The notes under the pieces were generated by a model, which was not told where the DNA came from, searched no databases, and was given only the letters and a program-made list of their open reading frames with translations. A program made the position numbers and the translations under genes. From Candidatus Omnitrophota bacterium (GTDB lineage: Bacteria; Omnitrophota; Gorgyraeia; Zapsychrales; JBAZNR01), in NCBI GenBank assembly GCA_041649175.1, contig JBAZNR010000001.1, forward strand, positions 258,332-322,331: a stretch of 64,000 nucleotides of DNA. The letters run 5' to 3'. Each line of letters starts with the position of its first letter. The first letter of the stretch is position 1. Shown here piece by piece: positions 36,403 to 61,500 of the stretch.

Positions 36403-36479
36403 CACGCCTCCTCTGTTGGATGATATTGTTTTTATTTCCACATTTCGACTGAACATTTATCTTCTCCTTTCGATCAAGA

Positions 36480-39400: not shown

Positions 39401-40496
39401 ATATGTGGCTATCATCAAAAGTCGCCCCAACGGCAATAACCTTTCTGCCTGAAGCTGGATTACCAATAGTTTCATAGAGATAATCATTTGAAGCCGCAGC
39501 AACGGCGACAACACCAATCTCAGCCGCATTGTCAAATGCCTCAGAACAATAATTGTCTGGATCGCCAAAAAGGCCCACAGTAAAGCTTGCCGTCACAACA
39601 TCAAGATGGTCTTCCATATTGTCATCATTGTTGGGATCCACGATTTCTTCAACAGAAAGAGAACAACCTCTAATATAGGCATACAATGTCGCTCCCGGCG
39701 CAACACCTCTTATAGGCTGTCCATCACCAGCGATACCATCACCGGCAACAATGGACGCCACATGAGTTCCATGCCCGTTTGTTAGATCAAGGGCTCCCGG
39801 ATTTCCCCCGGCAACTTTTGCGCAATTTCCGCTTTGGTATTGCTCTATAGTGCAACTTCCAAAATCGGCATGAGTATAATCAATGCCAGTATCTATAACC
39901 GCAACCGTAATACCTGATCCGTCAAACCCGGGATCTTCCCACACGGCTGTTGCGCCGATCTGAGGAGCCGATTCACGCAAAAGAAACCTGGGATCTTCAA
40001 GGATATGGACTTTCTTAACAAAACCTTGTCCTTCAGCTTGTTCCTTCTCCAATCCGGTCAGGTCGATAATAATTCCGTTAGACGCTAAAACAAGATGTTC
40101 TATGTCCCGCTGGCTTAGTGCGGGAACAATAGCGCCTAATTGGGCAACGTACTGATCTTGCATATTCCGAAGATTCTGCGCGTAGATTTGTGCCCTTGAG
40201 TACTGTTCAGACGTACGAGGATACGGGCCTAATTCTAAGGCGGCAGGATGTTCATTAAACTCAATAAAACATTTTTTGATTTCGTCGGGACCCTGCTGGA
40301 CATCTTGCTGAGGAACAATGATTGTCGATTGCGTATTCCAATCAAAGGTTTTTCGGCCTTCCAACGGCGTCAAGGGATAGCGTATCGTCCCCGGAACATC
40401 CGCCGCATGAACAACGGATGGCATGGATATTGAGCTCAATAAAATAACAACAGCCAAGAACCCCAAAAAAACGTTTCGTGTCTTAAAAAACATGGT
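36480..40496 (-). CDS. paralogous secreted S8 subtilase with FG-GAP/VCBS repeats
   Basis: VAVIDTGIDYTHADF, HGTHVASI, GTSMSAPHVAG; FG-GAP motifs DIDNDGRQE, DFDGDSVDD, DSNGDGIDE, DVDGDGYLD, DLDGDGTLE. Same architecture and C-terminal VCVPG..VC motif as its neighbour. Start set at the MFFKTRNVFLGFLAVVIL signal-peptide Met with an AAGGAG SD; the ORF track extends to 40601 and would overlap the giant gene. Confidence 0.8.
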   Translation of the reverse strand, partial: TMFFKTRNVFLGFLAVVILLSSISMPSVVHAADVPGTIRYPLTPLEGRKTFDWNTQSTIIVPQQDVQQGPDEIKKCFIEFNEHPAALELGPYPRTSEQYSRAQIYAQNLRNMQDQYVAQLGAIVPALSQRDIEHLVLASNGIIIDLTGLEKEQAEGQGFVKKVHILEDPRFLLRESAPQIGATAVWEDPGFDGSGITVAVIDTGIDYTHADFGSCTIEQYQSGNCAKVAGGNPGALDLTNGHGTHVASIVAGDGIAGDGQPIRGVAPGATLYAYIRGCSLSVEEIVDPNNDDNMEDHLDVVTASFTVGLFGDPDNYCSEAFDNAAEIGVVAVAAASNDYLYETIGNPASGRKVIAVGATFDDSHIWSDQMIDFSSKGPTMDGSVKPDVVAPGAIICAAKAANTVGWTPCIDGTHVSAWGTSMSAPHVAGMAALLLEQHPGWNPDQIKYAIRNSAIDLGYNVLTQGHGRVSAVAASQEPPPVIVKILKDVDTVDEVSFRTQLISYHDELPGEYQYAFDVGYMGSDPYFQPDDLQDPGQWMTNFHQEGAIVLQAGIPQELLQNPIDKSLLPADGIYLARFRTISAGGYDSTDYHTFLVENARVVSPRSGDVIGRETISFSGSIRINPGYRYMIEYEPYLSSLPYFTSDGITLTQEGLEPVEEGALGNFQTPESLPTGFYKFWIRIYDGNQLRWSKPIAVVRVDQELRSGFPARTIRYASESSEADPVLVIKDIDNDGRQEMSFVSYGLTSGYRRSIHIFGSNGEHENTINYGNTYNYFNHHSLILDDFDGDSVDDFLFQSQSHDSFQNPNELRTKRQDGGHIWSRIFAGGLLNGGFIQDTFFVNTDLNNDRAREIIFAQVNSISPFSKSLHLIDFNGDPVSDNWPKTITACRLPELGPSPLVGNFNSNREDKEIAYVGESEAFCDAGVPLMQLYIFNYDGLSVADPVYFSGASYSTPSSGDSNGDGIDEIFVNTDQGVYRYDPATGITAHLLSGIDCSFSTPALGDVDGDGYLDIVVVSANFEAGEATMFSIYVLHQNGTVLSGWPVHGKFTDFHGAILGDVNGDNQVDVLYSDFEDIGDHYFSSIHAKNYLGQEITGFPKYIEPGTTPGKILTDLDGDGTLELVATSKGLQRSSDDDDAGFDENTDLVPRVSLYAWNLNVPDSSFNHLWPSLRQDQQRRGLYAGIGAPLNFQASRQGPNSASLSWNDALASKYVYAYTAEVASDPQFRHLINGASAIDVGIRNYNYRFSDLSAGWYFTRVGSINRDDRSHVMWSSVKTICVPGGHVVCNDQEDDPLTRYKPVDHIFPEGNMEKFWGYFAGGDPDDWTGSGPVEFCPTCH

Positions 40497-40575
40497 TCTG
40501 CTCCTTTTGCTAAGATGTTGATAAAAACGATCTATAGAAACTTGACGCGCGGACGCGTCAGACTGATTTGATCTG

Positions 40576-43500
40576 CTACAAATGAAGCATTTTTCTGACA
40601 ATTCTTATCTCCTTTCCAAAACTGTTCCCCTGAAGTTGATAAAAATAAACTCTCGGAGGTAAGTCCGAAAGATAAACGGTGATGGGGCGAATGATCACCG
40701 CCGGAAGTGACGGATCCGGAACGAACGGATAAATAGCGAAAACATCTACATAAGAACAACTATCTAAAAGATAACGGCGGATTTGGTTCGTCCGCCAGGA
40801 TAAAAGCGGCGTGTCGTGGTCGGTTGAGTCGAAATCTTGTGAGAAAATATATGAGTCTAAGGAAGATGAATCTTTGAGGGTTTCTTGAGCAGGCGCGATT
40901 TTAAATAGACTTGGATTTTCCTCCGGCGGAGAACGCGCGTCGTGAATATTATCTTTTCCACCTGATACATTATTAAGATCAGCGTTACCATGCCCAAAAA
41001 TTGTCCGCGGGAATAAAATAATAACCGCGGCAACGATCATCAAAAATGTGCCGAATCCACGTTTAAGAATTCTTTGGGGAACATTAGTCTTTATCGGAAG
41101 AGAGTTTGTTCGAGAACCTTGCTCCTTGGCTCCAACCCAGGCATTGTCATCCGTAATGCTTGAAAATGGGATCGTGCCGTTATCATCCACATGATAAAAA
41201 GTTATCTGAGCACCGTTTCGAACAATGCGTTTGGTTTCCACAAGTTTAATATCCCGGGCAACACCTTTTAATAATTCTTGAGCCGGCACAATACGAATAA
41301 GCGTCTTTCCGTTGCGTTCTGAAGATTTATGCACCATATAATCGCGCACGCCATTTTCTAATAGATAAAGTTGGGAAAGAAAATGCGCCAAGGCGATCCG
41401 ATGATCTCTTTTTAACTTTTCAATAAGACAGTTATTGTAAAGACCGAGAAATTCAATAACCGATTTTATGGTGCATGGAGACTGTCGAAAGGAAGGATCT
41501 GATCGAGAAGGGTCATCATCGGGAAAAAGGCTGTTTGCGGAACCAAAATCATTTTCACTGCGGACAAGTCCGAAAAATACAAAACTTAATAAAGAAATGC
41601 TAACTGAAGAAAAATTTTCTATCGGCCAAAGGCCTATCGGCGGGGCGTGGGCCGTTAGAGACAGCCAATCGCCAAGCTGAACAATCATTGTCTCTAACGG
41701 CCCGATCAATACTCCTAAAACAGTTGCGGCGATCATCAAAGGTAAAGCGATAAAACCAGATGAGCGAGGTAAAGAATCCTCCAATAAACTTTTCTTGCCA
41801 AAAAACTTCTTTAATATGGGCCTGAGTTTCTCAAGGACATCAGAAAATTCATTTTCTACCGCGCTTTTTTCAATATCTAAAAGCTTGGCCTCAATTCCAT
41901 CCTTAGACATCCTTTCCCCGGATTTCCTCAGCTTCTTTTTAGCTTCATCTAAATTTTTAGATCCTTTTAAGATATTCAGTATCCATTCTTCAATCAATGC
42001 CCTTTTAAAGCGCTGAAAAAGCTCTTTTGAATCATGGCCTGATTCAAGCGCAAGGATAATACCGGGAATACGGCTATCACGCAAAGCCTTATAGGACATG
42101 GAAAATACCTGGGCCGTTTTTCTTTGGTTTCCGCGTTTTTTCTGCAAAACTGTTATGATTTTCTCGATAAAATCGTGGCTAATAATTTTCTTCCGGCGGA
42201 TCTTATCCTCTTCAGCGCTCTTCGAATTTTCCAATGCCTTGTTCAAACTTTCAAGGATCTCTTGATTATTCGCAGATACTGCCTTCTCGCGAATGGTAGA
42301 AATCCTGCGGTCTAAACTTTTTTTTGCTATATTTAAAGTTTTGGCTGCTTTTCCTCGATCTCCCCTCGCATCTTTTAAAGCTTTTATAGTTTCTTCTGTA
42401 CGGGACGGCAACAAGACTTTCTTTTCTGTCTCTAATGCTTTAGCTAAACGATCAAGAACCTCTTTTTGGCCTGCTTTTACAACTTTTCTACGAAGCTTGG
42501 GGATTCTATCGCGCAAACGCTCAAGAGGAATGTTAAGTGTTTCAGCCGCTTGTTTTTTGTCTCCTTGAGCAGCTTCTAACGCTTTTAAAATATCTTCCGA
42601 ATAAGACGGTAATGCTACTTCTCTGCTTCTTGCTTCGCCTATAGAAAAAGCAAACCGCCCAAATAACAACTCTAATTTTTGAGAAAGCATGCTATCGGAA
42701 GATTCTTTGGCAAAATCATCCAATCGTAATAAAAGCCTCCCTAAGCATTGCAGTGGAACCTGAAGGTTTGAGGCCGCCTCTTGCGCGCTTTCTGATATTT
42801 CTAAGACACTGACAATGCGCTCAGTATAAGTTCCTATAGAACAAATCTCTTGTAGACGCCGCTCATAGAAAAACATATGATACTGAGAAACTGCCGCTTT
42901 AAATTCGTTTAGCTGTAAATAAAATATCTTTTTACTGATCTTATAGCCGCTTCGTTGTATGGCTTCTTCTTCATCACCATAGGATTCTTTTAATTTATCC
43001 AAGAATCTTTTGACCCGGTCCGGGCACAATATTTCACTTAGCTGCTCTTCAATACTTATAGCTGTTTTCTCCCATTCTCCACCTTTATCTTTTGCTTCCT
43101 GCTCAATATCTTCCAACCATTGAATAAATTTTGTCGTAGAAATACCGTTTTTCGCATTGAGCAAATTATAAAAACGCTCCCGGCGTGATGCTGATTTTGC
43201 GTTGATCCTCTTTGCAACAGACAAGATCCTTTGCGATTTCTCTTGAAAAGACATTGCCTCGGCAGAAACACTAGCTGTCTCATCGCTTAATGAAGATCTT
43301 AGATATCTTCGCAATTCATCTAATGAAAAGACTCTTGCGATAAGCTTTAAACTTTTTAATTCCCTCCAATGCTCTTGATCAACTTCTGCTTTGGCAGAAT
43401 TAAACAGGATCACTCGCAACAATACATCGAAATGATTCTTAACAGCCTTACAAAACTGAGGAAATTCTTCCGTATGGAACTTCTCATATTCAAAGTCCTG

Positions 43501-46500
43501 GATGAATCTTCTCCACAAATAATGCATCGAAAACACGGTTCTTTGAGATTCCGCCTTCAAGGCCAGGTCACAAATCCAATAATAAATTTCTGTATACCGG
43601 GCAAAAACCCTGTCGTACTTAATAAGCGTCTGGCGCAAAACCTTCGCGCGGGCTTCATTATCTTCCTGGATTGAATTTATCAACTCTTGCGCTTTTTCTC
43701 CCGACAGAGGATTGTCGTTATGATCTTCCGCGATTTTCTCAAAGGGAGAATTTCTTAGGCTGCGCCAAATCACTTCATCTTCCAGACATAGTATTGATTT
43801 TGAAAATCCCGGATCTCCCTGACGTGCCGTGCGATTAAATAATTGTTGGTCTTGGCGCCCAAACTTATTAGGTTCTGCCTGAATCACGACAAGCCCGCCC
43901 ATTTTGGAAACTCCTTCGCCTAATTTAATATCTTCTCCACGGCCCATCATGTTTGTCCCGACGGTAACCATCTTCTTTTGCCCGGCAGTAGCCACAATAT
44001 CAGCTTCTTGCCAAGCGTTAATGCCGTTTAGGACTTGGCAAGAGATCCCGTTCGCATTTAACAGCGCTCCTATTTCATTGGCTGTTTCAATATAACAAAC
44101 ACCAATAAGCACAGGATTTCCCTTAGCGTGCCATTTTTTTATTTCCTTAAGAACTTCCTCATATTTCTTTTTCTTTGTTCCATAAATCACCACGCCTAAG
44201 TCAGTCCGGCGGCAAGGCTTATTACGCGGGATAAAAGATGTCTTTAAGCCATAGTATTTCTGCAATTCATCCTGCTGGCGGCCAATACTTCCGCTCATTG
44301 TTGACGCTCTCTCGGCAACAGATAAGAAAAAGTGATGCTGCGTCATAATAAGCGCCGGGTCATATACTTGCGAAACGGGCAAATGCTCTTTTGTTTCAAT
44401 AAATTGATGAAGTTGTAAAGCCCAAATATGTTCCGGATGAAGCCGGCCCGTATATTCGTCCACGATCACGATCCTGCCATTTTGCACAACATACTCTTTT
44501 TCTCTGCGATAAAAATAATGGGCTTCTAGCGCCACAAAAATAAGCCGTTCAAAATATTCCTGCAAAGCTTTTTTTCCCTTGGGTGTGAGCAAAGCTATTT
44601 GCCGATAATCTAAGCGATAATGAACTCCCTTTGCTAATAAGGATTTATAAATATTGTTACGCGCCATTTCGACGGGATCTTCCTCTTCCTTTTGCTGATG
44701 GTCATTTTTGCTGATCCAGGAAATGACCTTGACAGTGTCGCGAAACCACGCATGATCGATATATTTCACGATAAAATTTTCTACCAGCTTTGCGCGCGCG
44801 TTTTTTCCTTTCTCGGTAAATCGGACATGCTTTGTAGCCGGATTTAAAATGTAATCTTCCCCCGGTAAAAGCCTATTTAAGGATTCCTGATAAAGGATCT
44901 TGTAAAAAGCACCCATATCCCATCCGTCTTTGACCGTCGTTATGATAGGCTCAAAAGCATTATCAATAAGTGTTTCATCGCCTTCATCAATAACGACAAA
45001 AGAAATTTTTCCGGGCCGGCGTACTTGTTGCTGCGCGTCCGTAACTAAATGATCTCGTTCTATATCGTACACAAACTCATCATTAACGCCGTAAGTGATA
45101 TCTGCCGCGTAGGCTTGCTTTCGATAAAGCCGCAGATTCTCTTTTTTGTTGTGTCCATTGCCATTTCCATTCCCATTTTTAGGAACTTCTAAGGGGCGTA
45201 AATTTTTATAATGCGCGCTGCCGTTTTGATAGGAAGGATCGAAAAGGTACGACTGGCCCCTGACAACAACACCGACGCTTAATCCTAAGAAATGATATAT
45301 GCCGCCCATATCATGAGCATCACGCAAGGCAAGATTTTCTTTAACCGTTGCCACATAGACGCCTTGCTCTTTTAAAGCATTTAAGTAAACAGCCGAAACG
45401 GCCGCTAATGTTTTCCCTTCGGAAGATTCCATCTGGATAGCGCGGCCTTGATAAAGTTGAAAGGCCGCCAAAAGCTGAACATCGTAAGGGCGCATTCCCG
45501 TTACCCTGAAAGCCGCCTCACTGACAACCGCAAATGCTTTCGGCAAGATCTCCTCCAAGCTTCCTCCGTTTTTAAGCCGCAGACGAAATTCTAATGTTTT
45601 GGCCCGCAATTCTTCGTCAGAAAGACCTCCAAGCTCTTTTTCAAGTTCTCTAATGCCGCTTAACAAGAGATTACTAAAAAGAACCTCATTTTCTGAGGGC
45701 AAATTATTAACATCCATAACCTTCGAGAGAGAAAGCCCAAAGTTTTTAGCCAAAACATTCACCACATTTCTAGCAATGCCTAATTCTTTGGCAGAAAGCG
45801 TTCGGTTATTCTTATTTCTCCAAAGTGCGCGTATGCCTGCCCACTCTTTAAGCTCTTCCAGCGCCAAATACAGCGTTGGCTCATCTAAAATAGCGATGAA
45901 ATTCTCTTGTGCTTGCCGCATATCACCCTCGGAATAATTTTTCATCAAAATCCTTATACCTCTTGTGCTTATCTTTAACATTTTTGCGGCTTCGGTTTTA
46001 TTGCGGCCGGCCGCTAAAAACGCGTGAAGAACGGCTCTTTTCTTGATTTCATCCCATGTTAAGGCATCGTTTTTAGCAATGTTCAAATACGGCAATATAA
46101 AAATAAAATCATGAAAGGTGTTTTGGTTTATTTGATATTCGGCTATTTTTTGATCTAAATCTTCCTTTGACAGTCCTAAGTTTCTTGCCGCATTTTCTAT
46201 ATCACCGCCGCATTTCGCCAATGCAAAAAGAATTTGTTTTTTCTCTTTTAATGTCAATTCTGCGACGGGGTCTGATTCTTCTCGGTCTTTTTTTGATCTT
46301 TTGCTAACCGCCAAAACCGCGGCGGCAAAAACCATCTCCGTTGGGGCGTGAGGAAAATAGCCAAACACCGTGATCAAGATAAGAACCGCGCCAAGAGGAT
46401 AAACAAGGTTGTAAATCCTCTTTTTCTTTAAAATAGAATAGATCCTCCCCCGAAGATATCTCTGCAGCATAATGGGGTAAAGATTGCCGAAAATATTAAA

Positions 46501-49500
46501 GATCCCTAAAACAGAAAGTAAAATCATTCCCGCTATTTGAATAATTCCTGTTGTCAGCAAACTTACGGCCAATAATCCGCCCATGACAGAAAGCACGATC
46601 AAAGAGTATATGTAGTGGATCGTTTCCATTTCCCTGGTTGTTGTCTCTTTTCTTTTTAATGCCTCAGCGGAGAAGTGATCGACAAATACACTCGGCGGTA
46701 ATTTCTTAATATCTCTCAGCAGCCATTTTCTAAACATCTTGATCCCGAGAAGCTCATATAGTTTGCCGCTTCGTTCGAAGAATTTCGGCTTAAAAACAAA
46801 CTCAGCCCGACGAGGATCTTTTAAAAATACATTCACTAAAGATGTGGAGAAGTAGGAAATCACAAGAACACCCGCAATCAAGATGAGAGAAGCTATCCCA
46901 ATAAGAACGGCCGATAAAGAAATAATAGCGAAGGATTTAGAGGAAAGAATGGTGGTGGCAAGAAATATCGTGGAATTCATCGACCCAGGGGCGAAATTTC
47001 CAAACAGATATTCCAGCATTCCCCAAAGTACCACAAACCCTGTAAGCCCAAATCCGATCCAGCCGTGAAGCTTTTCTCCATCAAGCTCTTTTAAAGAATC
47101 GTCTTCTTGCCGAGAATGAATATCCTCAAGGATGTTCTTTAAAGGTTGATGAACTCTTTGGACAGAAATAATTTTTGGGCGCAAGTATGGTATTTCTCTC
47201 AATACTGCGACACTCAGCCGAGGAGAAAAATTGCCCACTTCAAAAAAAAGATTAGTTCGGATATTGCGAAGTGCTAAGCCCCCGATATACGCACTCTTGC
47301 TCTTACCTAATTTTATGCCTGGCCTCATCACTTCAAAAGTACTACCATTCGCCCCATTAAGCACATCACCCATTTGCAAATCTTTAAGTAAAAATTGATC
47401 AGCAGGAATAGTGAGGGTTGCCATTTTTTCTTCTTGTGAAGGAGAGGAAGGAGCCTGAGCCAAAGAATTTACCGGAGAAACACTTACTACCGCTGTTAAA
47501 ACTGCGGCAGAGAAAATAAAGCGTGGGTTGAGATATTTTATCGGTGGCGCCTGGGCGAAATGGCCGAAGAGATATCCCAAAACTCCCAACAATCCTACAA
47601 ATCCAAACAACACCCAGCTGCAAAGTGCGGTTTCTTGGGAATCTAATACAAAACCTTTTGTTTGTTCTTTAGCTGACTGAGATCTATCAAGGGAACTCTT
47701 CCGAGCAAGGGCATGACCGGCTAAGACAATAAATTCGCCATTTCCCACCGGGAAGAGCAGTTTATTAGCTATGAAAATGTAAACTGCTTTTTTCATGTGC
47801 TCTGTAGATTTAATGATTTCCAACGAGGCTTTATCCAAGATTCTTTCCAAAGTTAACCGCGCCCCAATACCTGCCGCAAGGCAACATCGTTCTATTTCTT
47901 GAAGATCAACCAATACAAATTCGCCCAACGTCCCTAGTGCTTCTTTTGAGTTAATTTGAAATCTTTTTTGGAATCTGGAAATATATACCGCAATCTCTTC
48001 TGGAGTAAGAAGTTTCTCCCATGCCCTATCGGGTAGCGTGATAGACGAAACATGTTTTAGACGCTTAAATTCCCCGTTCATTCCGGGAAGAGCTAAAATT
48101 AAAATTCCATTGCGTTCATATCGAAATATAAAGCCGCGCTTATAGCTTAACGCCCCTAATATTTTTTTGATGGTTACGACAGAATTGATCATCGACAACG
48201 GCACTTGATCATAAACGATAAAAGTATTTTCCGTAAGGCCGTTAAAATAGATCGATAGCATGTCGACCCAAAATGATTCAAAATTGTCTAGGATTGGCTG
48301 GCTTTGTTCTCTGGAAAAACCCCAAACTTCAAGATTACGGATAAGTTTTTCATCTTCCCGCAAAAAAAGCGCAGGAACACTATTAGAAACACTTTGTGGA
48401 CGACTTGCTGAGCGTTTACTTTTTCCGGAGGATCGTTTTGAAGATACTCTATTTTCTTTCTGACTACTCTTTCTTAGAACATCATCTTCGTAAATCTTAT
48501 TCTTAATATCTTCCAGCAAGTGTTGTAACTCGCGGATACGAACCAAGAATCTTAAATCATCAATACCTTGGCTTAAAGGATCTAGTTGCGACAATGCCAT
48601 CTCGGCATCTTTATGATCAAAGTATTCTTGATAAATTTCGATAAGCGCCTTGGTCTTTGAGCGTAATTTTTCTGCATTCGCATCAGGAAAATTTTTCTTA
48701 GGAGCCCGCAAAGCAATCCATTGACTTAAACGTACGTCTCTGGTTTTTGTCGGTTCCTTAAAAACCGGAATGATATTCTTCAAGTCCCTAGCAGGAGGCA
48801 CCTGCCGACCGATATATGGATCAATTAGGTCTAGTAGCGCCTTAAACCGTGAGCGTGGCAAAGTTTTAAGGAAGAACTCGGGATTACTATCAATAAGCTG
48901 AGCAATTTGACGTGATGTAAATCCAAAAAGGCTTAAAACAAGATACAAGAAATGGAGGAAAACGACAGACTCTAAAAACCTTTGCTTGGTCCAATTTGAA
49001 ACCCGGTACCAATACGTGCGGCTAAAAGAAACCCCGTAGTTTTCAGGAATACGCATCCGTTCTAAAATCTCTTCCGGTAACCGAAGCCTTTCCCAAACAA
49101 CATCCGGAACAGGCCCAATATATTCCGCATCATCTCGTCCGGATAGAACAGATTCTTTTCCCGCCTTGTGCTGCGCCTGTATTTCTCGTAATTCTTTCCG
49201 AATCCTGTCTTCCTTATAATTAGATATTATAAGAGCAGAGATGGGCATTTTGAATTCATCCTGAAATATTCTTGCCTTCCTTAAATATTCCGACGGAGAA
49301 ATCTTTCTTTGGATATATTTCGGAAGTCTATGATATTCAATACCGCGGGCACGTAATTCTCTTAAAGCCGCCGGACGCCCGCTATTGCTCATTTCTTTGG
49401 CTACGCGCATTTTTTTGTTCTCGATCAAAAGAAGCCTTTGGCTATGCGCTGGCTCTGCAGCCAAATCACACCGTAACGGTTTAAATTCAACGACTAAACT

Positions 49501-52500
49501 CCGCAAAGGCCTATTTTTTAGAGTTCCAAAATCAGCCTCGGTAGCCAATCGAAATACCGCCCAGGCATATTCACCCGGATTTCCTAAAGAAAAGCTTAAT
49601 CCTTCAATGCCCTTACACCAAAGGCATGTTCCTAATTGCTCATGCTGGGCTTTACGCAATTTAACTAATTCCCTAGAGGGAATCGCCTTGGTAAATTCTT
49701 CAACGTATAAACGTAATTCGGATTCTATTTTCTCATGGGAAGGAGTTTTGCATAAACTTAACCCCAAACTCTGACAACGCGCGCGAACTTGATAAGGCCA
49801 TTGTCTTTTTCTTAAACCATCAAATGCTTTGATCATTTCTGTTGCCGTCGGAAATCTTTCATGAGCAATCGTTAAGGATTGATGAGCCGTACGGTATTCT
49901 TGATCGGTTGTCACCGATCTTCTTGTGCTTGTTTCCTGTTTTACCGTCGCCCACGCCATACCCAAGGGCGCGAAAAGAGGCAAAAACGCAAATCCGTGAA
50001 GCTTTTCTTCCGTCATTCCCTCAACCGCTTTTTCCCAGTAATCAAAAGAGTCCCCGATAACATCAGAATAAGATTCATTCAGTTTCTTAAGTGCCAAAAA
50101 TAAAGCTGTTGCCTGATCATTTAATCCAACTAAACGTAATGATTCAAGGATTCGCGTAAGGCGTAGAAAATTGTCATTCGGTGAAGATAGCCAAACACGG
50201 CTTCTATTCTTAAATCCCGGGCTATGGACGACGCGCAGGCCATTTTGACTGTTTCTTAAGGCAAGCCCATAGAAGGAAAGCATGACCTTAAGGGATCGGA
50301 TCATATTTGATCTAAGGTTTTGACCGATTTTTGTATCGGCACGAAAAGTATCGGCAGTTTCCCGGGTTAAAACAGGAGGAACAACCTTTTCTCCTAGGTT
50401 ACGGCCCATGATTTCCCACACAAAAGCACCAAGGCTTTTTGTAGGGAACAATAACTGTATAAAATTGTGGTCTTCTTCAAGCTGCTCATGGCTAAATCGC
50501 CAAATATCACGAATATATCTTCCTTCGTGGTCTGTTCTTCTTCCCAAATAAAAATCAATCAGTTTGTCATTGAATCCTGTAAGCGGCCATGAGTCATCCC
50601 CCACCGTTCCTAGGGCCGGCAAGCAGAATAAAAGCGAAATAAACGGTAGCCCGAAACAACAAAGAGCTTCCGATACAATTTTCCTGTTTTCCAACACCAC
50701 AAATTCTATTTTCCGTGCCGTGATGACATAATATTCCGTCGGGAAACCTTTGCTGTCGTAAACCTGCTTAACGGTAATGCCGCTATACCTTTGAGATCGC
50801 TCAAAATAGTGTAAAACTAAATTTATCCTTTCTTGGGCAGAGTGATGATCATTCCACGTTTTAGTTCTTGCTGAAGGATCGGAACGGTCGTCAAAAACAA
50901 CAGCAAAAGGCGCGCCAACTTTTAAAATTCGGTTAACCTCTCTAAAAAATCTCCTCGGCTGTTTAACATAGGCAATGCCGTTTTTCATCAATACGCCCGA
51001 AGCGTAATCATTCGCCAGTAATCCTAGCCCCCGATTGACATCAAAAACAATGCCTTGGGTGAGCCTTTGATTTGCGCGTAATTCAACTTGATTTAACCCG
51101 ATGCCAATAAATTCTCCCTGAAGAGTGCGCGGAAAATATGTCTTAGCGCCGCTCATCAGGTCAACAAAAATAGGTTTTTTGATCCGATGATCATTTTTAA
51201 AAATACTCATTAAGGCATGTTCAATGGCGATCTCTTGTTCAGTATTGGTATAACCGATCAAATTAGGCTTCTGCCAAACGGAAGATAGGTTTTCTACCGT
51301 CCCCCACAGCCCAAACGGCAAGAAACAAGCAAGATTATTTTGTTTCTGGAAAATATAAGCTCCATTTCTTGCCCCACCGTAAGCAGGGCCGTTATAACCA
51401 AAAATAGCCCCCTGTCTTTCTAACCCCAAAAGAACACCATCTTGCACCAAGGTTAGTAACCCGCGTGCGCTACGCTCCATAGCCCTGTCGCTATCAAGAA
51501 TGACAAATCCTCCGGGCCTTAAGAACTCTTCAATAAGCCGAGCTGATAAAAGGAATTTTCCGTCTCTAATATAAACATCACCGGCTTTGATAATGATAAG
51601 ATCAACCCCTTGGGACGCTTCAAGATGACTTCGATAGGAATCAACGGCTAAACCATCCGTTTTTTCAACAAAGATCAAAGAACGCTCTTTTCCCTGCAGC
51701 ATAAAATTCAAACTGAAAGTACCCGCGTGGTGGCCGGTCGAATTTAAATCAATATCAGTCACACCGCTTGCCCTTAGCTCTTTCTTTAAAAATGGCCATA
51801 TCCCTTGGCACATCCACAACAATTCATTCGAGATAAAACCCATTCGGCTTTTTTCTATTAAATACAATTCGATGATCTTATCTTGGTGTATGGCGCAACG
51901 CGGATCAATATCATCCATCTTGCCGCCTGTTAGCATCATCATAAGCTTGATCATCAAAAAATATTGAAGAAGCTGCTGTTGTTGCTCTTGAGAAACTGCA
52001 TTTAGATTTGTGTGAAACGGAAGTTTTTCGATAAAAATAAATTTGGCGGCATTGGTCGTAACCCAAGCTGTAGAAAAATCAGCGGCCGGCCCGATCAAAA
52101 GCGCCACTCTTTGTTCATTGTCTCTCATGGTTTCTGCGCTGTTAACAATTTCGCGGATACGGCTCATGTATCGGAAATTCAACTCTCCGCCAACCAACAT
52201 TTCCACGGACCAGATTGCCGATGATCGATCACCGCTTCTATTGCCCACCGTCGCCCACACTAAACCTAGCGGCAGACAGGCCGACAGTATAAAGCAGGAA
52301 AGTTTTTCTTGCTGTGCCGGCGAAGCGGAACTATCAGCAAAAAATTCATCCCAACCGCTGTCCATCCAATCGGCCTTCTGAATTAAACCAAATTTAGCGA
52401 CAATTTCTCCCTTTAACTCACGCGTGCACATGTTTAAGTTAACGCTCATGCTCCCGCTAGAATGAACCACGGTTGTTCCGACGCGTTGTGAGATTTTCTC

Positions 52501-55500
52501 GCGAGGATTAAATCCCGCGCTTGTTAGTTTCTTAAAATCGAAACTCAAAACTATCGGCTGACTGGCATAAATCATACGATAGCCTTCTCCGACAGCACCG
52601 GGAGAAAGAAACGCCGCTACATCTTCTGGTTCATAACCGCTACTGCCCTCTTCGACAAACGGATATATTATTGCGCGCGCATGCATATCGGCAGATGCCG
52701 CTTCAGTAATCAGTTCAACATTCCCTCGGCCAAAAACCCAGCCTTCAGTTTCTAATGCCCTGTCAACAATCGCCGTAATTGTGCCATGATAGAAAATAGG
52801 TTGGAGAGGGGAAAGCGTTTCGTCATTTTCCGCGTCCACCGTCCCCCACGCCAGCGGTAGTGAAAACACAAACAGCATCACAAAAGCAAACGTTCCCTGA
52901 AGTTTATCATCGTGTCCGGTATTTTGAATAATCAAATCCCAGCGAGGGTTTAATTCTCTCATCTGAAGGTCTATAGCCCACCAACGGGAAGCATATTCAT
53001 CGTCGGCTTCTTGGATCCTGTAAGAATTAATTTGGTCTTTCGAAATGCCTTGGCGCTCAAAATATCGTCCATAGGACGCCAAGCGGGAGATGCCTTCCGA
53101 ACGTTCGATCAAGATATGGATATCCGGATCTAAATCGTGATGGTCCAGCCATTTGGGCGCATGGTAACCTTCGACCACGATCACCTTGGCTTCTTCGCGA
53201 TGTTCGTAAGGTAGTAAGAATTCCGGATTTTCTTCACTGTAAACACTGACATGGTGGCGGAGAATTCCATCCAGCTCTCCTTGAGCAATTAAACGGCTTA
53301 AAGTTGTTTTTCCGCGCGCAGGCAATCCGCAGATACTGATCACTACCGGTTCTTCGCCCCTTTCTAATCTCTCCTCGATCATAGCGCTTAATTCTTTTAA
53401 TCCCTCCCAAAGATCATTAGCGCGCCGCGGAGCGGGTTTTCTGGCCCAGACAACCATATTGTGATTCACAACAACGGCAAGATCGGAAAGTTCAAAACCA
53501 TAATCGTCGTCGGTTTCCTGATTAGCGGTGTAAGAGCCGGATCCCACTTCGAGATTTAATTCCTTTCCAACTGCCTTAAGCATCTCTTCGTATTCTTGTG
53601 CCGTCATCGGCTTGATGGATGGATCTCGATTAGTTGCTCCTAAAAAGTTACTGGGCCCTTCATCCATACTGCGATATAGAATAACGATGTATCCGCCCTC
53701 TTCCAAAAGCTCAAAAGCTTGCTTCAAGATTCTCGCCCTGTCTTCCGGAGAATAGAAAAATAGGACGTTAGCAATGGTGATGATATTAAATTTCTCTGCA
53801 ATACCGTTTTGATTCAGCAGATCTTTTATATTGAGAATATCTCCTTCGATAAGCCGGATCTGTGTGTTGGCGCGAAACGGCTCTAATTTTTCTTTTGCCC
53901 ATTTGAGCATTTCACCGGAAATATCCACGCCGACAATTTCGGCGGCGCCGTTTTGCGCAGCCAATTCAGCGACCATCCCGGTTCCCGTCGCCAAGTCCAG
54001 AACTCTACTTCCCTTAACATGATCGAGCGGAACAGCCGCACCAAAAATAGATGCCGCCGCTTTCCTCATTGCCACTTTTACGCCGATATCATAATTCCGC
54101 CGAACGGCAAAACCATCGTATTGTCTTTTGAGGTTTTGCGCGGTAGATAAAGATTCAAGATACGCATCAATGTCTGCTTGTGTTAACGCCGCGGAAAATA
54201 TTTCCCGTTCCCAGCTCATCGTCGAACGCACGAGTCCATCTTGAATACGTTTTATTTTTCTTTCGTCAAAATTAAATCCTTCAAACCCCTGGCCTATTCC
54301 TCGTCGAATTCCGGAAATAAAAATATCTTCCTTATCGCTATTTTCCGGCTTTGCCAAGTTTTCCGCGACACCGCTAACCAAGACAATATGTTCCACAAAC
54401 TCTTCATCAGGATAATGACGGACAAATGCCGCAAACGCTTGTCCTATTTGTTCTGCCATATCATTAACAAATAACATGGTAAATTCATCTTTCGAATTAA
54501 CAGCGTTGCTCATTCCCCTTAAAATGCTATCAACGGCGCGAGCCTTCAATATCTGCTCATCTTCGTTGAGTGAATCTGTAGCGCTAATTAAACGCGATAA
54601 ACTTTCATAGTCGGTAACACCTTCGGGAAGTTCTATATATTGCAAAGCCAAACGATTGTCCCCAACAGCTTCCATAAACGCCGCGGCAATCTTCGGCCCG
54701 CCGAACAGGTCTTCAAAATCAACTCTGCCTTCATGCTCAACGGGATGTTGCCCCTTAGCCGTAAAGCCAACAAATTCCCATTTAAGCGAAGGCAAAGCAA
54801 ATGGCCCATTGTCATGAAAAGTAGCTTCGATAACATGGCCTAATTCTAAGATCTCATTTTCTTGCCCAAAATAGGGTTTTCTGTTTTTCCCGGCTGTTCC
54901 ATTATTTCCGGTCCCTAAAATAAATGCCATACCATCTTGGACTTGCGCCAATCCTCCGCGAGGACTGAATTCTCCCAAGAGAGCCGCTTCGCAATCATTG
55001 TAAACAGCCACTGCAATACGATAACCGTATTGATCATTAAGTTTCTTCTCTAGCACGTCTTTAAGAGGATAATTTTCAAACGGTAAGTTAGCCGCTTTAA
55101 ACGGTGTTCCGACGATGCCGCGATAAGAATCCACAGGACCGGCAAAGGCAATTCCAATTTTTATAACTTTTTTATCCGGCAAGCCGGTGATGATATTTTC
55201 AATTTGAAGCAGAATGCCCTCAATGATATTGTCACTGGTCGCAGATGCCGTGTATTTTTCTTTCCATTTGATAGCGTCCACAGTCGCAATGATATTCCCT
55301 TGTACATCTACCGCCCCGGCGCCGATCTTAGTTCCACCCAAACTGATCCCGACAGATACGACTGAATCTTTTATAGAGAAAAGTGCTCCCATCGGCAAAA
55401 AGGCCGAAAGTTTCTCTGTCTTTTGCCCACTACCATTGTCCTCATCCGAAATGATTTGCTCAGGCCGTCCATCAAAATAAACAGCTTTCCAGTGTAACCC

Positions 55501-58500
55501 GTCGTAAACAACAACGCCCGCGTTACGCCCAAATTCGAGATGTTTTTCAGCCAAAATAATATTGGTATTGATGACCTTGCCATTTTGAGTCCAGCGAATT
55601 TCTTTCGCCTCTTTGTGTCCGACGATCTGCGGCAGTAAAAGATTTTCCGGGGTTAGATTAAGTTCATCATCAAAGTCAGCCCAAATAATACCGCCTGGTT
55701 TATACCCGCTTTGCCCGCGTTTTTTGGGGCCAAAGTGGGCATTGCCGCGCTCAAAAACAATATCGCTAAAATTATTTGCCCTAATCGCCTCTACTAAACG
55801 ACGATTCAACTCTTGGGCAATATCTTCCATCGGCAATAAATTCGGCCGATCATTTATTTTTATGGCAATATCTTCATCGGTTAGTTCTTGCGGATCTTTA
55901 TCAAGTTCCTGGGCAATGAGAAGAATTGATTCCGGATGAAGTTTCTTAAGTAAATGCGCCGTAATATGCGGCAGCATTCCACCATGAACCATTAAGCGGT
56001 CGTGGATATGAAAGGCGGCCACCATTTCACCTGAAAGAATGGAATTTCGCATTTCCGGAATGATTTCAGTGGCTCGCTTATCTTCCGGTTTTCCCTGAAA
56101 ATGCTGGAGCTCATGATTTCCGACAAGCGTTACCAAACTATTAGCCTTTGATAAAGCCTTTCGATGCAGCATGTGCAAATAACGATACAGCTCTTTTTGA
56201 TATTTGCCGCGGTCTAAAATATCCCCGATCACCACAACCGTAACGCCGCACACTTTCCACTCATCATTCATGAAATCGCTTCCAAATTCAATGATGCCAA
56301 GCTTACTTAAGGCATTGCGCACGCCCCACAGCTCTCCGTGGGGGTCACCAATGATAACCGTTGTTACGGCGGCTAAGGTTTGCGCTTCAAGCAATTCCCC
56401 TTCAACTCGAATAATGCCGTCCCCAAAAGTAAGCGAAGCGTTTGTCCATGTTTCTCCTTTATCGGTGGAAAATACCGGCCGGATAGAATATGATCCCGGG
56501 CGGGTCATGAGCACTCTTGCCTTAAAAAGATAGTTATTACCCTCAAATCTTAGGAATTCCAGAGGAGTGAAGGAATATGGGGCTTCATCTTCGAATTTAA
56601 TTTCGAGAGTTGCCGCTATGCTATGAGCAAAAATAGCGTCGTGAAGTTTCCGGGAAACATACGCCTGAGCATAGATCTCTATCATTTGACCGGATACGAC
56701 TTTAACCGTTTTTCCGGAAAATGGGCCGGCATAACTTTGTGCCGCGATATCCAAATTGCCGGCCCAAACAATTGGGGCATGCCCTAAGTCGCGATTAAGA
56801 ATTCGTGCAAAATCAGCAATGGAGAATTCTTCAAGCTGCATTAACTCCCCGGCCAGGTCCAACCGGACCTGGGCCCACTCTCTTAAATTCCATTTTTGGT
56901 GCGCGACCCATGCCCCCTGCAAAAGTTGAGTAACAAGATAAAAATAAACCCTTAATAGAAATAACTTTTCCGCATCCAAGGACAAATCAACTGGGGATAA
57001 ATGAACCGTGCGTTTAGAATATGTTAATCCATATCGCTTTTGATAAGTCGTCAGAAATTCGTGCATCAATTCTTCGATGTGCCCTATCAATAAGGCGTTA
57101 TTTTTTCTGGCATCAATAAGGCCCAACAGCGCGTTGGCTAATTCTTTTGTTGCCGCGTCAAATCCGCCTAATTCAGCATCGATCCAGGCCATCACGTGGC
57201 CGGAGTCGCTATCAACAAACCAATTCCAGGGGAAAGGATCGCCGTGAGTAAGAACTTTTTGCTCACCTAAAACAACGTTGTAAAATTTATTGAAGAAATC
57301 TATAACGGCGGGAGGATGAACCGAGGCAAGGTGCTCTTTGAACTCCGGGTTATCGATCATGCCCATTATTTTGTCTAACAATGTCGCATAATCGCTTCTT
57401 GAGACCGGCTGAGCCGTTGGATAGCTTTTGTGAAGGCGCGCTAAGCCGCCGGCGGCGGAACGTAACGTTGCCTTAACTTTTTCAATATCAGACCGGGGAC
57501 GATGTAAAAAGCCAAATTGACTTATTAACCCTAATCGATTTAAATTCTCCAGAACAAGAGCCCTGGCATTGTCATTGAATAATAGAAGATGGGGGCGCTT
57601 ATACGGATTAGCCTCAACAAAAAAACATTTCTCGGCTTCATAAGCCTTGGGGGCACTTGTTTTGTCCATATAGATCTTAATAATGTATTCCCCCTCTAAG
57701 GCTTCAAAAACAATGCGGCTTTTTACCGAGATCAAAACTCTCCCCTTTAAGTAATTAACTAACTCCGGCAAGCTCATATCACCGGCGGCAAAGAAATTAA
57801 GCAATTCTTCAATGTATTTTAATTCCTCATCTGGACTCTCTTGCTCTTTGACCATCGCCCAAAACCCAAGAGGGAAAAATATTCCGGCAAAACCGTTAAG
57901 AGATTGTCCGTCTTCTTCATCCGACAATAGTTTACCGATCTTGGCTCTTAGCAATCCTACAATCGCGCTATGAAGCTGGGAAATACGGCTTTCTGTTAAA
58001 TTTAACAACCCCCCGATTTCTCTCATGCTCATGCCGTTAAAATAGTATTGTTGAATGATCGTACGGTCCCGGGCGGGAAGCTTTTCAATATATTCACGCA
58101 AAATAGAAACTTTTTCTAAGGCGACAACCCGTTCGTGAATGTCTTCATCCGACGGAAATAATGCTTTTAAAGAATGTAGATCGTTGCCTGTCGTTCTTGA
58201 AATGAAATTATCCAAAGAATCAAATCCGCTTTGACGGGCATAAATAATCGTACGCAGCTCTTCGATCCCGATATGAAGCTCCGCCGCTATGGCTTCTTCC
58301 GTCACATATCCTCCGGAAATAGCAGCCAATTTATCCACCGCTTCATTTAATTTATTGATTTTGGCATACATGCCACGCGGCAAATGATCTTGGGAACGTA
58401 GGAAATCGATGAGCTCTCTTTGAATACAGCCAAAAGCGTAAACTTCAAACGGAACATCTTGGCGGTTATTGAAATCCCTCGCGGCCGTAAACAGCCCAAT

Positions 58501-61500
58501 AGAAGCTACCTGCTTTAATTCTTTGAGCATTTGGGAATCTTGTTGAATTTTTTGGGGTAGTTTTCGATAAATATATCTGGCAACGCGATCGGTAAGATAC
58601 GAATACTTCTTTATCACCTGTCGATATTTGTTTTCTTCTTGGTTTTTCTCGTAAACAGCTTTTTCGCTTTCAAAATGAATGCCATAAGATTTAATTCGCC
58701 ATTGAAGATTTCTTCTCGACAAACCAAGCTCCTGGGATGTTTGATCCTTATCGAATTTATTTTCCTGCAAAGCATTCAATATTTTCTGACGTTTAGCCTT
58801 GAATTTAAACTCCCGATGAATTTTTTTCACATCAATTCTTAGTTTCTTTAAGTACTTATATAAAACTACCTTACCAATATCCAGAAATTCGGCTAACTTA
58901 GGAACATCGCCCTGAAACTGGTTAAGCAAAGCTTTAAGAACTTTCTTTCTTTTCTCTCGGATAGTTCTTCTTACAGGAGCATCGGAACGCAATCCTGATT
59001 TTCTTATATGGCCATATAAAGTCCCTTTTCCGATTTTTAAGAATTCGGCTAACTTAGGAACATTATTCTGGAACTGATCAAGTTGGATCTTAAGGGTTTC
59101 CCTTCTTTTGTCTCGAACAATTTCTCTCACGCGAATGCCGGCGCGCAATAATTCACTATTTAATACGGCCCTGTCGCATTCGAGAAATTCGGCGGTTTTC
59201 GTAATATTCCAGTCATGCTTTTCTAAAAGCTCTAATAATTGTTGTTTTCGCGCTTTTTTATCTTTTCGTTCCAAGGAGAATAACTTATAGCGGCTAAATA
59301 ATAATTCCCGGAGGTAGCCCTCACTCACACCGCGAGCTTCGGCTGTCTTGGCAATATCATCACCGTGCGCTTTAAAGTCTTCACGCAATTGTCTTTTACG
59401 ATTGCGTTGTTTTTTCTCACCCGGACGAATACCATAACGGCTAATCCGAGAACGCAGCGTATGAATGTTAATATTTTCACCTTTGGCTAATTCTTCGGTA
59501 TCCCAATGATATTTGTTGAGTAAACGTAAGAATTCGTTCTTGCGCCGATCTCTTTTTTCTCGTCGCTTAGACCTTGGATGGTTAGGAGATTCTTCTTTTG
59601 TATTTGCAACCATGCCAAACACAGCAAAAGGAAATATAAAGCTATTAAGGGCTTCTGTTTTCTTATTCGGCGAAACAGGTTTTAACCGAATTGCGAACGT
59701 GGTTCCCTCTCCCGGAGTAGATCGCGCGACAAAGATCTCGCCACCCATTCGCTCGATACTACGTCGCGCGCCGCTTAATCCAACACCAGTCCCATCCATG
59801 ACAACTTTCTTGGCCTGATCAGTGCGATAGAAAACTTTAAATACCTTCGCCATATCCTCAGGGGCCATTCCCATACCATTATCGACAACATCAACCCGGA
59901 CCCAAGTTGTTCCGTTATTGTTCTCCTCGGAAATACCGATTTTGACCAAATTACCGCCGTATTTTTTGGCATTTGTCAAAAGTTCGATCATCACCTGCTC
60001 TAATTTCTCCTGATCTATTAATACCGGCATGCGTTGCTGAAGAATATCAACAATAAATAATGGATCGTGTACAACAGCTTCTCCTGAGGTTTTGACATGG
60101 TTCTTAAGAAAAATCCTTGGCAGCCATGAAGCTAAATTAACATCCTTTATAACAACGGCCGGCTCAACGATCTTTCCGGAAACTAGATCATGCAGTCTTG
60201 TCGTTAAAAGCATGAAAGTTTCATAGGAAGATTTTTGTTGTTCTTCTGCTTCCACCTCCGGGATCCGTGATGAGTCCAGCAAATCCCGTGTTGCGTTAAT
60301 AAAAGTAGTCAAGGAATAGTACGTCACTCTCAGGCGCTTAGTCTTTTGCCCAATATCAATACGCAAAATGATCTCTTCTCTTGTAACTCGAGCGAGGTCT
60401 TCCATAAGCTGATTGAGAGACCCGCTATGAACCGATAAAGCTTGCATTCGATATTGCTGTTCTTCGCCGGGAACTGCGTCTAGATCCAAACGGGAAAGAG
60501 CCCCTAACATGCTTTTTAAGAATTGAGACAGGATGTCGATCTCATTTTCTCTTAGCATGCTGAGATCTTGTTCGCCGTATTCCTGTAATAGGCTCCCCTT
60601 TCTTTCTACTAAACCTTGCCAATCTTGTGTTTGGTTCATGAATTCCCGGGAAACAAGCTGAAGTTTTGCCAATATATCGACAAATTCTGGAAAACGCTTG
60701 GCGGCTTCATAAAGCCCTGATAGATAATTACGAATATCATGAACGGTTTCCACGATATTGTGGGCGTTACGGCTCATATTCAATGTATTCTCAACACTCG
60801 CGTCTAAATTAAGCCGGTCCATCACCAGCGTAACTAATTGCGCTATCATCAAAATGTATTTCGTTTTAAGCTGTTGGTCTTCTTCGCTATAAAACAAAGG
60901 CTGGGAAACGGATAGATCGGCCGATGAGGCGGCTATTTGCCAATTATCCATCATCAGGATGTAAGAAATTTCTCCGCTAAACGCGTCAATAATACCGATA
61001 TGAAACACCTCTTCTACGCGCCCCGCGTGCTTACCGCCGAAATGAACGCGGTCGGATTCAAACATAAGCCTATCAACAAAATGTTCATCATCCATTAGCC
61101 CATTGTCGCCGATAAAATGATCACTGCGTTTCTTGGTATGCAATAAAAGCGGCTTCCCCTGAGCGTTCATGCGCTCAAAAGTATTGAGCGCTCTTAATTT
61201 CTCATCGCTGGAATCAGAAAATACTTCTTTGTGACGGCTGGGGCGAAATCCACCGCGCGAGGCATCCAAAACATGGCTGACCTGCCAAACATTGTCAATT
61301 TTTCTAACCTTGTAAAGCCTAGCCCGGCCGATGTGCAGGACTTGAATGATCGCTTTACTAAAGATATCCTCCACTTTTTCTTTGTGTTTAACGGAGAAAA
61401 GGGCTACCGCCAATTGAATGAGATTTCCCACATGCCAACGCGACGGCGAATAATCGACCAAGTTGCGCACGGCTGCCCCTGAGAATAAAACATCGAAAGA

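Follow-up and report, generated by a model that had tools for sequence, protein, structure and literature searches.

A recurrent hydrophobic motif at module boundaries of a giant Omnitrophota protein

We describe a recurrent hydrophobic motif in a giant protein of a Candidatus Omnitrophota bacterium, which is encoded in a stretch of 64,000 nucleotides (nt) of the contig JBAZNR010000001.1 (positions 258,332 to 322,331 of the forward strand), referred to in its full length as the window. The recurrence of the motif is beyond chance, and we show by comparative analysis that it behaves as a selected, protein-level punctuation mark delimiting complete modules. We tentatively read it as a lineage-specific mark displayed on the surface of the membrane, where it would probably serve in proteolytic processing, in engaging a SecA-like module, or in both, and give this reading a probability of roughly 0.4. 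The giant genes of Omnitrophota, with their many enzyme domains, a divergent SecA, many predicted transmembrane (TM) helices and associated S8 and C39 peptidases, have been described previously (10.1101/2023.11.21.568195), and a 2026 preprint presents giants of a “multi-enzyme” class 1 and describes their bias towards the membrane (10.64898/2026.06.07.730766). Neither study mentions a junction, linker or boundary motif, and a literature search on bacterial giant-gene polyproteins returned only synthetic nif polyproteins. A first-pass annotation of this DNA had stated that no linker of this kind was described; in the literature searched this holds for both the conserved junction motif and the lineage-specific boundary marks reported below, but the class of protein bearing them is already known.

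The main question on the giant genes of Omnitrophota is whether each of them yields one enormous membrane-bound protein or a product that is cut into many. West-Roberts et al. 2023 asked whether the giant products are cleaved, the cleavage points being unknown and their lack blocking further analysis (10.1101/2023.11.21.568195). Marks at the ends of modules offer concrete, testable candidate cleavage sites, and can be used both for the computational splitting of giant proteins and for correlation with the protease repertoire of each genome. The motif reveals no new mechanism by itself; it makes the question “cut, and where?” directly testable.

A bipartite motif at the ends of complete modules

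The giant open reading frame (ORF; 40576..>64000) lies on the minus strand, as do all its features given below, and reads without a stop through at least 7,807 amino acids (aa), its N-terminus being cut off by the end of the window; residues are numbered from codon 1 of the window-internal part (63999-63997). All eight peptides quoted in the first-pass annotation were recovered from this single frame, where they start at aa 2036, 2864, 3704, 3902, 4223, 4447, 4669 and 7415. When they are aligned on their C-terminal end a bipartite element emerges: it begins with [E]-[K/A]-L-x-[G/C/S/A]-F, continues with about 8-19 hydrophobic residues containing P-[L/F]-G, and closes with [W/F]-[G/A]-[T/M]-V, after which comes an acidic or polar stretch. 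The protein displays 10 copies of this motif, named mA, m0-m7 and m9: mA (62755..62826, aa 392-415; SLACFCPSVGNIFDSLIPALFGMV followed by SNVNDD), m0 (59608..59655, aa 1449-1464; EALNSFIFPFAVFGMV followed by ANTKEE), m1 (57850..57906, aa 2032-2050; QSLNGFAGIFFPLGFWAMV), the degenerate m2 (55378..55416, aa 2862-2874; EKLSAFLPMGALF), m3 (52837..52908, aa 3698-3721; DKLQGTFAFVMLFVFSLPLAWGTV), m4 (52246..52308, aa 3898-3918; EKLSCFILSACLPLGLVWATV), m5 (51295..51339, aa 4221-4235; NNLACFLPFGLWGTV), m6 (50602..50670, aa 4444-4466; EALCCFGLPFISLLFCLPALGTV), m7 (49942..50007, aa 4665-4686; EKLHGFAFLPLFAPLGMAWATV) and m9 (41563..41607, aa 7465-7479; SVSISLLSFVFFGLV followed by RSENDF). The motif had been correctly recognized as recurring, but three copies (mA, m0 and m9) had been missed, with mA and m0 lying beyond the interval to which it had been confined; all three emerged from scans for hydropathy and pattern. 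Nor are the copies near-identical, as had been thought: they are merely similar, and LSAFLPMGALF is a degenerate one.

Leave-one-out hidden Markov models (HMMs) retrieved each omitted copy as the top non-training match in the 7,807-aa protein, with scores of -1.3 to 13.9 bits for the copies versus -1.1 to -4.1 bits for the best non-motif match, m2 and m3 being marginal. The motif HMM reached at most -1.0 bit in 50 shuffles of the protein and at most -0.1 bit in 15.9 thousand amino acids (kaa) of other ORFs of the window, neither background offering anything comparable to the copies. The core [FW][GA][TM]V was observed 7 times versus 0.22 expected (maximum 3 in 2,000 shuffles), and, with an upstream P[LFMA][GAL], 7 times versus 0.004 expected. 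The acidic or polar nature of the stretch after the motif was likewise borne out, the seven residues past it having a mean net charge of -1.1 against a background of +0.04 (P = 0.006). A search with 18 motif peptides gave no NCBIfam match and no meaningful Pfam match at E <= 10.

At the level of DNA, synonymous sites differ between the copies while the residues are kept, and the junctions lack extended repeats, the best shared stretch being a single pair with 27 nt at 78% identity. The synonymous codon differences and the absence of extended repeats point to selection on the peptide. They also bear on whether the motif could be an artefact or a non-protein feature, be it a mis-assembled or frame-fused operon, internal starts at an ATG or GTG in the motif, or an insert of the Rickettsia palindromic element type. 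Three copies do feature ATG-GTx at the M-V position, but the frame stays open for 23.4 kb across unrelated modules, with ordinary genes and stop codons elsewhere in the window, equally long homologous ORFs are found in independent assemblies, and the motif M/V codons are not preceded by a Shine-Dalgarno sequence; we consider such an origin very improbable. Specific candidates were rejected: an alternative genetic code or a mis-assembly by the ordinary genes and stop codons elsewhere in the window, internal translation starts by the missing Shine-Dalgarno sequences, while the next gene has AAGGAG, and an in-frame palindromic-element insert by copies that are not alike at the DNA level.

Pfam and NCBIfam matches resolve the giant protein into a chain of complete, unrelated proteins, and the motif marks their ends. 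The profiles of the histidine kinase and the FliA-type sigma factor reach their last positions about 3-12 residues before m0 (at aa 1439-1446) and m1 (at aa 2021-2024), respectively, and the motif lies 6-15 residues beyond the point where the preceding protein naturally ends, past a short polar spacer. At the junction of the sigma factor with a kinase-phosphatase module, m1 ends at aa 2050, leaving 1-4 residues to the point where homologues begin to align with the next module; at the junction of the phosphatase with a ROK kinase, m2 starts at aa 2862, with a polar lead-in from about aa 2857. Five metagenomic homologues align in BLAST to aa 2052/2054-2850/2853, which is exactly the m1-m2 interval. 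Position 2 of the ROK profile falls at aa 2883, 9 residues after m2, and m7 comes after an OGFr_N-like module. There are also domain boundaries without the motif, the ROK, methyltransferase and P-loop domains sharing one motif-to-motif segment. As not every domain boundary is marked, the motif-to-motif segments are whole, sometimes multi-domain, proteins. The earlier placement of the motif exactly between domains is borne out at the natural ends of modules (histidine kinase, FliA, kinase-phosphatase and ROK).

Boundary marks in related proteins

An exhaustive HMMER search with aa 1300-2499 against 1.84 billion representative proteins recovered, as its best matches, other giant proteins of 5.7-7.5 kaa, the best alignments starting inside or just past m1, along with homologues of the kinase or of the kinase-phosphatase module that stand alone, at a length of about 450-860 aa. 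The named homologous giant proteins are all annotated as Candidatus Omnitrophota, and the order of modules differs between them. In one of these, P0009 (7,299 aa, Omnitrophota), which is about 32% identical in the shared module, at least nine junctions end in F-G-M-V-x-G-G with acidic residues after it; G is found at +2 in 6/9 and at +3 in 4/9 copies of this mark. The P0009 junction AFIFPFLFATTG, followed by STNRDD, closely resembles SFIFPFAVFGMV, followed by ANTKEE, of the window, and the pattern common to the two proteins is E-x-[L/I]-x-small...F-G-M-V.

A polar mark, (S/A)SSP(V/L/A/I), is used instead by P0006, P0011 and L006. P0006 (7,546 aa, encoded at 10001-32641 of L007) displays 27 such marks, none of them inside a Pfam hit, with each Pfam domain lying between successive marks; marks of the SSSPV type are also seen in the neighbouring large genes of L007 (1271-7192 and 33535-36141). 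The phosphatase domain of P0001, P0003 and L002 has TM helices or a double-hydrophobic stretch of about 45 residues at its end, and in some relatives another domain is fused at the kinase-phosphatase boundary without a hydrophobic segment. The kinase-phosphatase module has a gene of its own in L003, L004 and L005, and its stand-alone homologues show either an N-terminal signal peptide followed by LRP....[V/I] or no leader. From the end of the mark to the kinase strand YIIKIY there are 54 residues in the window protein, 55 and 53 in P0006 and L006 with their SSSPV marks, 62 in P0011, 69 in P0009 and 64-66 in the stand-alone proteins with LRP....[V/I]; given this distance of 53-69 residues to the same anchor, the marks are positionally equivalent across lineages. 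No homology of sequence could be detected among the marks themselves.

The motif HMM found no match in P0001, P0002, P0003, P0004, P0006, P0011, L002-L006 and L009. Word-indexed protein searches with a five-motif segment and with the motif alignment gave nothing useful, and with the kinase-phosphatase alignment a single match, P0005. A scan of a genome collection returned only a weak OGFr-like match in a Rickettsiaceae metagenome-assembled genome.

Among the unfused relatives, L004 (2069-14347) and L005 (841-13119) each encode three co-directional, otherwise unrelated proteins of 858, 1,438 and 1,814 aa. These share only a leader of 45-55 residues at the N-terminus (a signal peptide with TLRPAS..[V/I], 41-71% identical) and a C-terminal ..QAA/KAA, ends that, judged from their sequences, resemble the tags of a system dedicated to export or sorting. 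Such tandem genes with one leader raise the possibility that the motifs are inherited fusion scars, which descend from the shared leaders of once-separate genes, have little present function and owe their similarity to common origin. The signal peptides at the same position in stand-alone homologues are in line with this, as is the differing module order, which implies shuffling and fusion. The first-pass annotation had entertained fusion relics that keep their N-terminal anchors, and what speaks for it is position, namely the stand-alone signal peptide and the shared leader; no sequence similarity is detectable between the motif and the known leaders. Moreover, mere scars would not account for the same residues being kept despite synonymous differences, or for a four-residue core common with a giant protein whose shared module is no more than about 32% identical. 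We regard them as an unlikely explanation.

Possible membrane association and candidate processing of the junctions

The free energy (dG) summed over 19 residues on the Hessa scale, an approximate measure, is 6.0-8.3 kcal/mol for mA, m0, m1, m2, m5 and m7 and 3.9 for m9, with m3, m4 and m6 borderline at 1.0-1.4; the TM helices of the CrtO region have values of -2.8 to 2.5. Given the unfavourable dG and the short uncharged cores of 9-19 residues with Pro and Gly, a TM helix anchor is not supported for most copies. Of the TM or re-entrant anchors envisaged in the first-pass annotation, a shallow or interfacial insertion may still apply. The conserved segment of P0009 is not TM-like either (dG 5.9-8.9), and, among 11 junctions examined, 9 have a variable borderline-TM segment ahead of the mark (dG -1.8 to 3.1; about 10 in the other two). 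In the window protein, m9 and a TM element just upstream (m8) form a bipartite junction of this same layout.

The eighth of the quoted peptides, GFIALPLMIAATVLGVL, which had been counted as a copy of the motif, belongs to a different class of junction (41638..41763, aa 7413-7454; dG 0.26), consisting of a predicted TM helix and then ..LTAHAPP. Paralogous elements, with a TM segment and YLFG.FA.APP/APG, are found at 47542-47631 (aa 5457-5486) and 46984-47076 (aa 5642-5672). In consensus, the class has [H/N]F.[R/Q/H]APP after the predicted TM helix (AHAPP, AQAPP, FAPG), and a TRAPP form is seen in the L002 ORF at aa ~7360-7402.

If the chain were cut before [T/M]V, position -1 would be G/A in 10/10 copies and position -3 would be A/V/L/M in 8/10 and F in 2. 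Together with the short h-like core, the P/G helix breaker and the acidic downstream stretch, these residues recall Sec signals, as a pattern match only. Other types of signal were considered and discarded. A class III prepilin signal is at odds with the short cores, G-F/G-T-F being found in 3/10 copies (m1, m3 and m7) and E at +5 in 0/10; double-glycine (C39) leaders are disfavored, as none of the window copies ends in GG and the window part of the protein has no C39 domain; and the copies have no match to a lipobox. LPXTG, PEP-CTERM, PGF-CTERM and GlyGly-CTERM sorting signals were set aside, the motifs being internal, with acidic residues after them and no NCBIfam or Pfam model. In the L002 ORF we did observe internal prepilin-like signals with E at +5, at aa ~4125-4185 and 7345-7400 (SQG/FVALETVFLV... 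and KNG/SSLIEMALVIAISAV..., the slash marking the site); sites such as these (G/SSLIE, G/FVALE) are notable in that a type II secretion/pilus-like locus has been reported next to Omnitrophota giant genes.

In the reading that we favor, the aromatic-rich hydrophobic core would bring each junction to the surface of the cytoplasmic membrane or to the translocon, where it might engage the SecA-like module of the same polypeptide. The invariant end, a small residue with [T/M]-V, would be recognized by one common factor, most probably a protease, and by the cut each module would be set free with an almost native N-terminus. Functional analogues of such a junction would be the signal peptides found inside polyproteins of viruses and, rarely, of bacteria, or the pro-sequence of pro-sigma-K. 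Since the conserved part is not membrane-spanning, a polar mark can replace it and removal of the signal peptide would give the stand-alone homologues the same N-terminus, a recognition site is the most likely role. The candidate proteases are a type I signal peptidase and two S8 subtilases with FG-GAP repeats whose genes follow the giant ORF directly, in the same orientation. The nearer one (36480..40601) has a likely ATG start at about 40496, 80 nt past the stop of the giant ORF, with an AAGGAG Shine-Dalgarno sequence before it; its paralogue (32476..36456) is 38% identical to it. The two proteins, of 1,326 and about 1,338 aa, both have a signal peptide and are predicted to be secreted, and we name them as candidate processing enzymes by their proximity alone. 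The G/A that would invariably stand at -1, a motif 1-4 residues before the next module, the polar SSSPV equivalent and the downstream S8 genes would all fit a processing site, which the first-pass annotation had also put forward.

A further small module of the giant protein, with the pattern GRAPP...HPYFF...RHEFSH (62080-62682, aa ~440-640), belongs to a set of related G(L)GARAPP modules, in which a stretch resembling beta-strands is followed by HExxH/HExxGH (RHEFSH, RHEVLGH, RHDVIGH). In P0001, P0002, P0003, L002 and L009 the kinase module has the form GLGARAPP...RH[E/D]V[L/I]GH immediately on its N-terminal side, and modules of this set were located at aa ~2120-2330 of P0001, aa ~250-460 and 1260-1441 of P0002, aa ~880-1090 of P0003 and aa ~3130-3340 of the L002 ORF. 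This module and the other unannotated segments have no match in Pfam or among PDB sequences; the module may be an embedded zincin-like protease.

Several points weigh against processing at the membrane. The modules, among them the sigma factor, helix-turn-helix units and ATP- and SAM (S-adenosylmethionine)-dependent enzymes, are of cytoplasmic type, so that it is difficult to envisage all of them being exported; with one hydrophobic segment at each junction, the topology would also alternate. The predicted secretion of the S8 proteases means that they could reach the junctions only if these, too, were exported. The ten residues upstream of the core have a net charge of -4 to +1 (mean -0.5), and hence there is no positive n-region. 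The motif is absent from P0005 (46% identical) and P0001 (about 40-45%), whose kinase-phosphatase modules are the most closely related, and an HMM of the leaders of stand-alone homologues gave no match to the motifs; homology between motif and leader was therefore dropped and positional equivalence alone kept. AlphaFold2 models were uninformative both for aa 3685-3930, which spans two motifs (single sequence; predicted local distance difference test, pLDDT, 33), and for the RAPP/HExxH module (4-sequence alignment; pLDDT 41).

The main rival, which is possible though we hold it to be doubtful, is that the motifs are uncleaved membrane staples: each would form a short hydrophobic hairpin or wedge in the cytoplasmic leaflet, with the chain left intact and its modules arrayed on the inner face of the membrane. 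The cytoplasmic type of the modules is readily accommodated here, as are the abundant aromatic and aliphatic side chains of the cores and their central P-x-G turn, the TM helices or double-hydrophobic stretches at the same boundary in L002, P0003 and P0001, and the TM1 segments of P0009. It also agrees with the 46% of long Omnitrophota proteins that are reported to be “TM-only” and were read as membrane-anchored with cytoplasmic domains (10.64898/2026.06.07.730766). However, a generic anchor has no need of the conserved [W/F]-[G/A]-[T/M]-V end, the TM-like part is not the conserved one, whether in the window protein or in P0009, and the polar SSSPV mark at the equivalent boundary of P0006, P0011 and L006 cannot anchor. 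If true, the staple would be a new way to array cytoplasmic enzymes on a membrane.

Alternatively, the motif might be an uncut docking peptide, bound as a linear motif by a chaperone, a scaffold or the SecA-like clamp in cis, or else the motifs might bundle together. A conserved short linear peptide outside the folded modules would suit this role, and the preprotein cross-linking domain of SecA is present in the same polypeptide; but no partner came to light, and the present data fit cleavage as well as docking. We judge docking to be rather unlikely. Returning to the processing site, a wider and more doubtful proposal is that the giant ORFs of Omnitrophota might encode true bacterial polyproteins with a lineage-specific code ([W/F]-[G/A]-[T/M]-V, F-G-M-V-x-G-G, SSSPV), each mark being cut by a co-evolving protease. 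If so, a single translation product of 8-150 kaa would be processed into dozens of enzymes and regulators in fixed stoichiometry, or of exported effectors, a polyprotein strategy that, to our knowledge, has so far been associated with RNA viruses.

Remaining modules and parallels with known systems

Once redundancy is removed, the 27 Pfam rows of the giant ORF, among them many overlapping methyltransferase or sigma-factor models, amount to about 12 domain types, including HATPase_c, HTH_8, Sigma70, APH, Metallophos, ROK, methyltransferase, OGFr_N, CrtO and SecA. The catalytic end of the histidine kinase (aa ~1201-1446) was detected by Pfam and NCBIfam. Tandem HTH_8/PucR-like helix-turn-helix units of about 75-100 residues each (58675-59571, aa 1477-1775) are found directly upstream of the FliA-type sigma-factor module, and further units of this kind at 42220-42843 (aa 7053-7260). 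The FliA/WhiG-type sigma factor is full-length (aa 1795-2021, profile positions 1-223 of 224), and the m1-m2 interval holds an APH-like kinase and then a metallophosphoesterase. Pfam and NCBIfam also point to the ROK kinase, the SAM methyltransferase and a P-loop kinase-like segment, and to three small modules, the OGFr_N-like module and a CrtO-like membrane segment. The embedded SecA-like module (43345..45666) combines SecA_DEAD (E = 2.9e-58), the preprotein cross-linking domain (SecA_PP_bind, PPXD) and P-loop_SecA in Pfam, and its NCBIfam SecA match extends to profile position 692 of 789, so that a loss of the scaffold and wing domains, as in the SecA of the known giants, is no more than possible; an insertion in its DEAD/PPXD region bears a low-complexity run, NGNGNGNGH (~45130-45200, aa ~6268-6285). 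We also observed an internal duplication, in which aa 12-377 resemble aa 4833-5429 in three BLAST segments of 28-39% identity; this module (62869-63966 and 47713-49503) has no known domain, and a hydrophobic junction element comes after each copy. The remainder of the window is made up of bacterial genes of ordinary size, for biotin/thiamine synthesis, MnmG, CysK, sugar transporters and glycoside hydrolases.

The nearest parallel is with the multi-enzyme giants of Omnitrophota, which the window protein resembles in its very long ORF tiled by HATPase_c, ROK, methyltransferase, kinase and phosphatase domains, in an embedded divergent SecA_DEAD with a preprotein-binding domain, and in scattered hydrophobic segments and associated S8 peptidases. 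It differs from them in that the junction is a defined sequence motif, mostly too short for a TM helix, and that HEAT, glycosyltransferase or dockerin content was not seen in the window part. Of the features of the archaeovorin subtype (West-Roberts et al. 2023), namely HEAT, glycosyltransferase/glycoside hydrolase, TPR and NUDIX domains, none appears among the Pfam hits of the 7,807 aa in the window.

Internal signal peptides of the Sec type are known from the structural polyproteins of flaviviruses and from FbcH, the cytochrome b/c1 precursor of Bradyrhizobium japonicum. The motif has in common with class I Sec signals a hydrophobic core, a P/G breaker before small-x-small and an acidic early “mature” region, and sits exactly where the stand-alone homologues carry their signal peptide; unlike these signals, it is conserved in sequence, is devoid of a positive n-region and recurs in at least 10 internal copies between modules of cytoplasmic type. 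Similarly, MARTX toxins join unrelated functional modules in one polypeptide with short recognisable sites between them. Their sites, however, are simple Leu-containing loops rather than hydrophobic motifs, and neither a cysteine protease domain nor RTX repeats or toxin-type domains were detected in the window protein.

In precursors of the cyanobactin type, repeated recognition sequences are cut by two subtilisin-like (S8) proteases, PatA and PatG. The parallel lies in a bipartite conserved mark around each unit of cargo and in two S8 paralogues encoded nearby; but the cargo here consists of whole enzymes of 200-1,000 aa as against peptides of 6-8 residues, and the S8 proteins are secreted FG-GAP proteins tied to the motif by proximity. 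Finally, the pro-sequence of Bacillus pro-sigma-K is a short hydrophobic peptide through which a sigma factor associates with the membrane and which a membrane protease cuts off. It is a single N-terminal element without sequence similarity to the motif, and no protease of the SpoIVFB type was seen in the window; the likeness is that here, too, a complete sigma factor, of the FliA type, is among the modules and is flanked by the motif.

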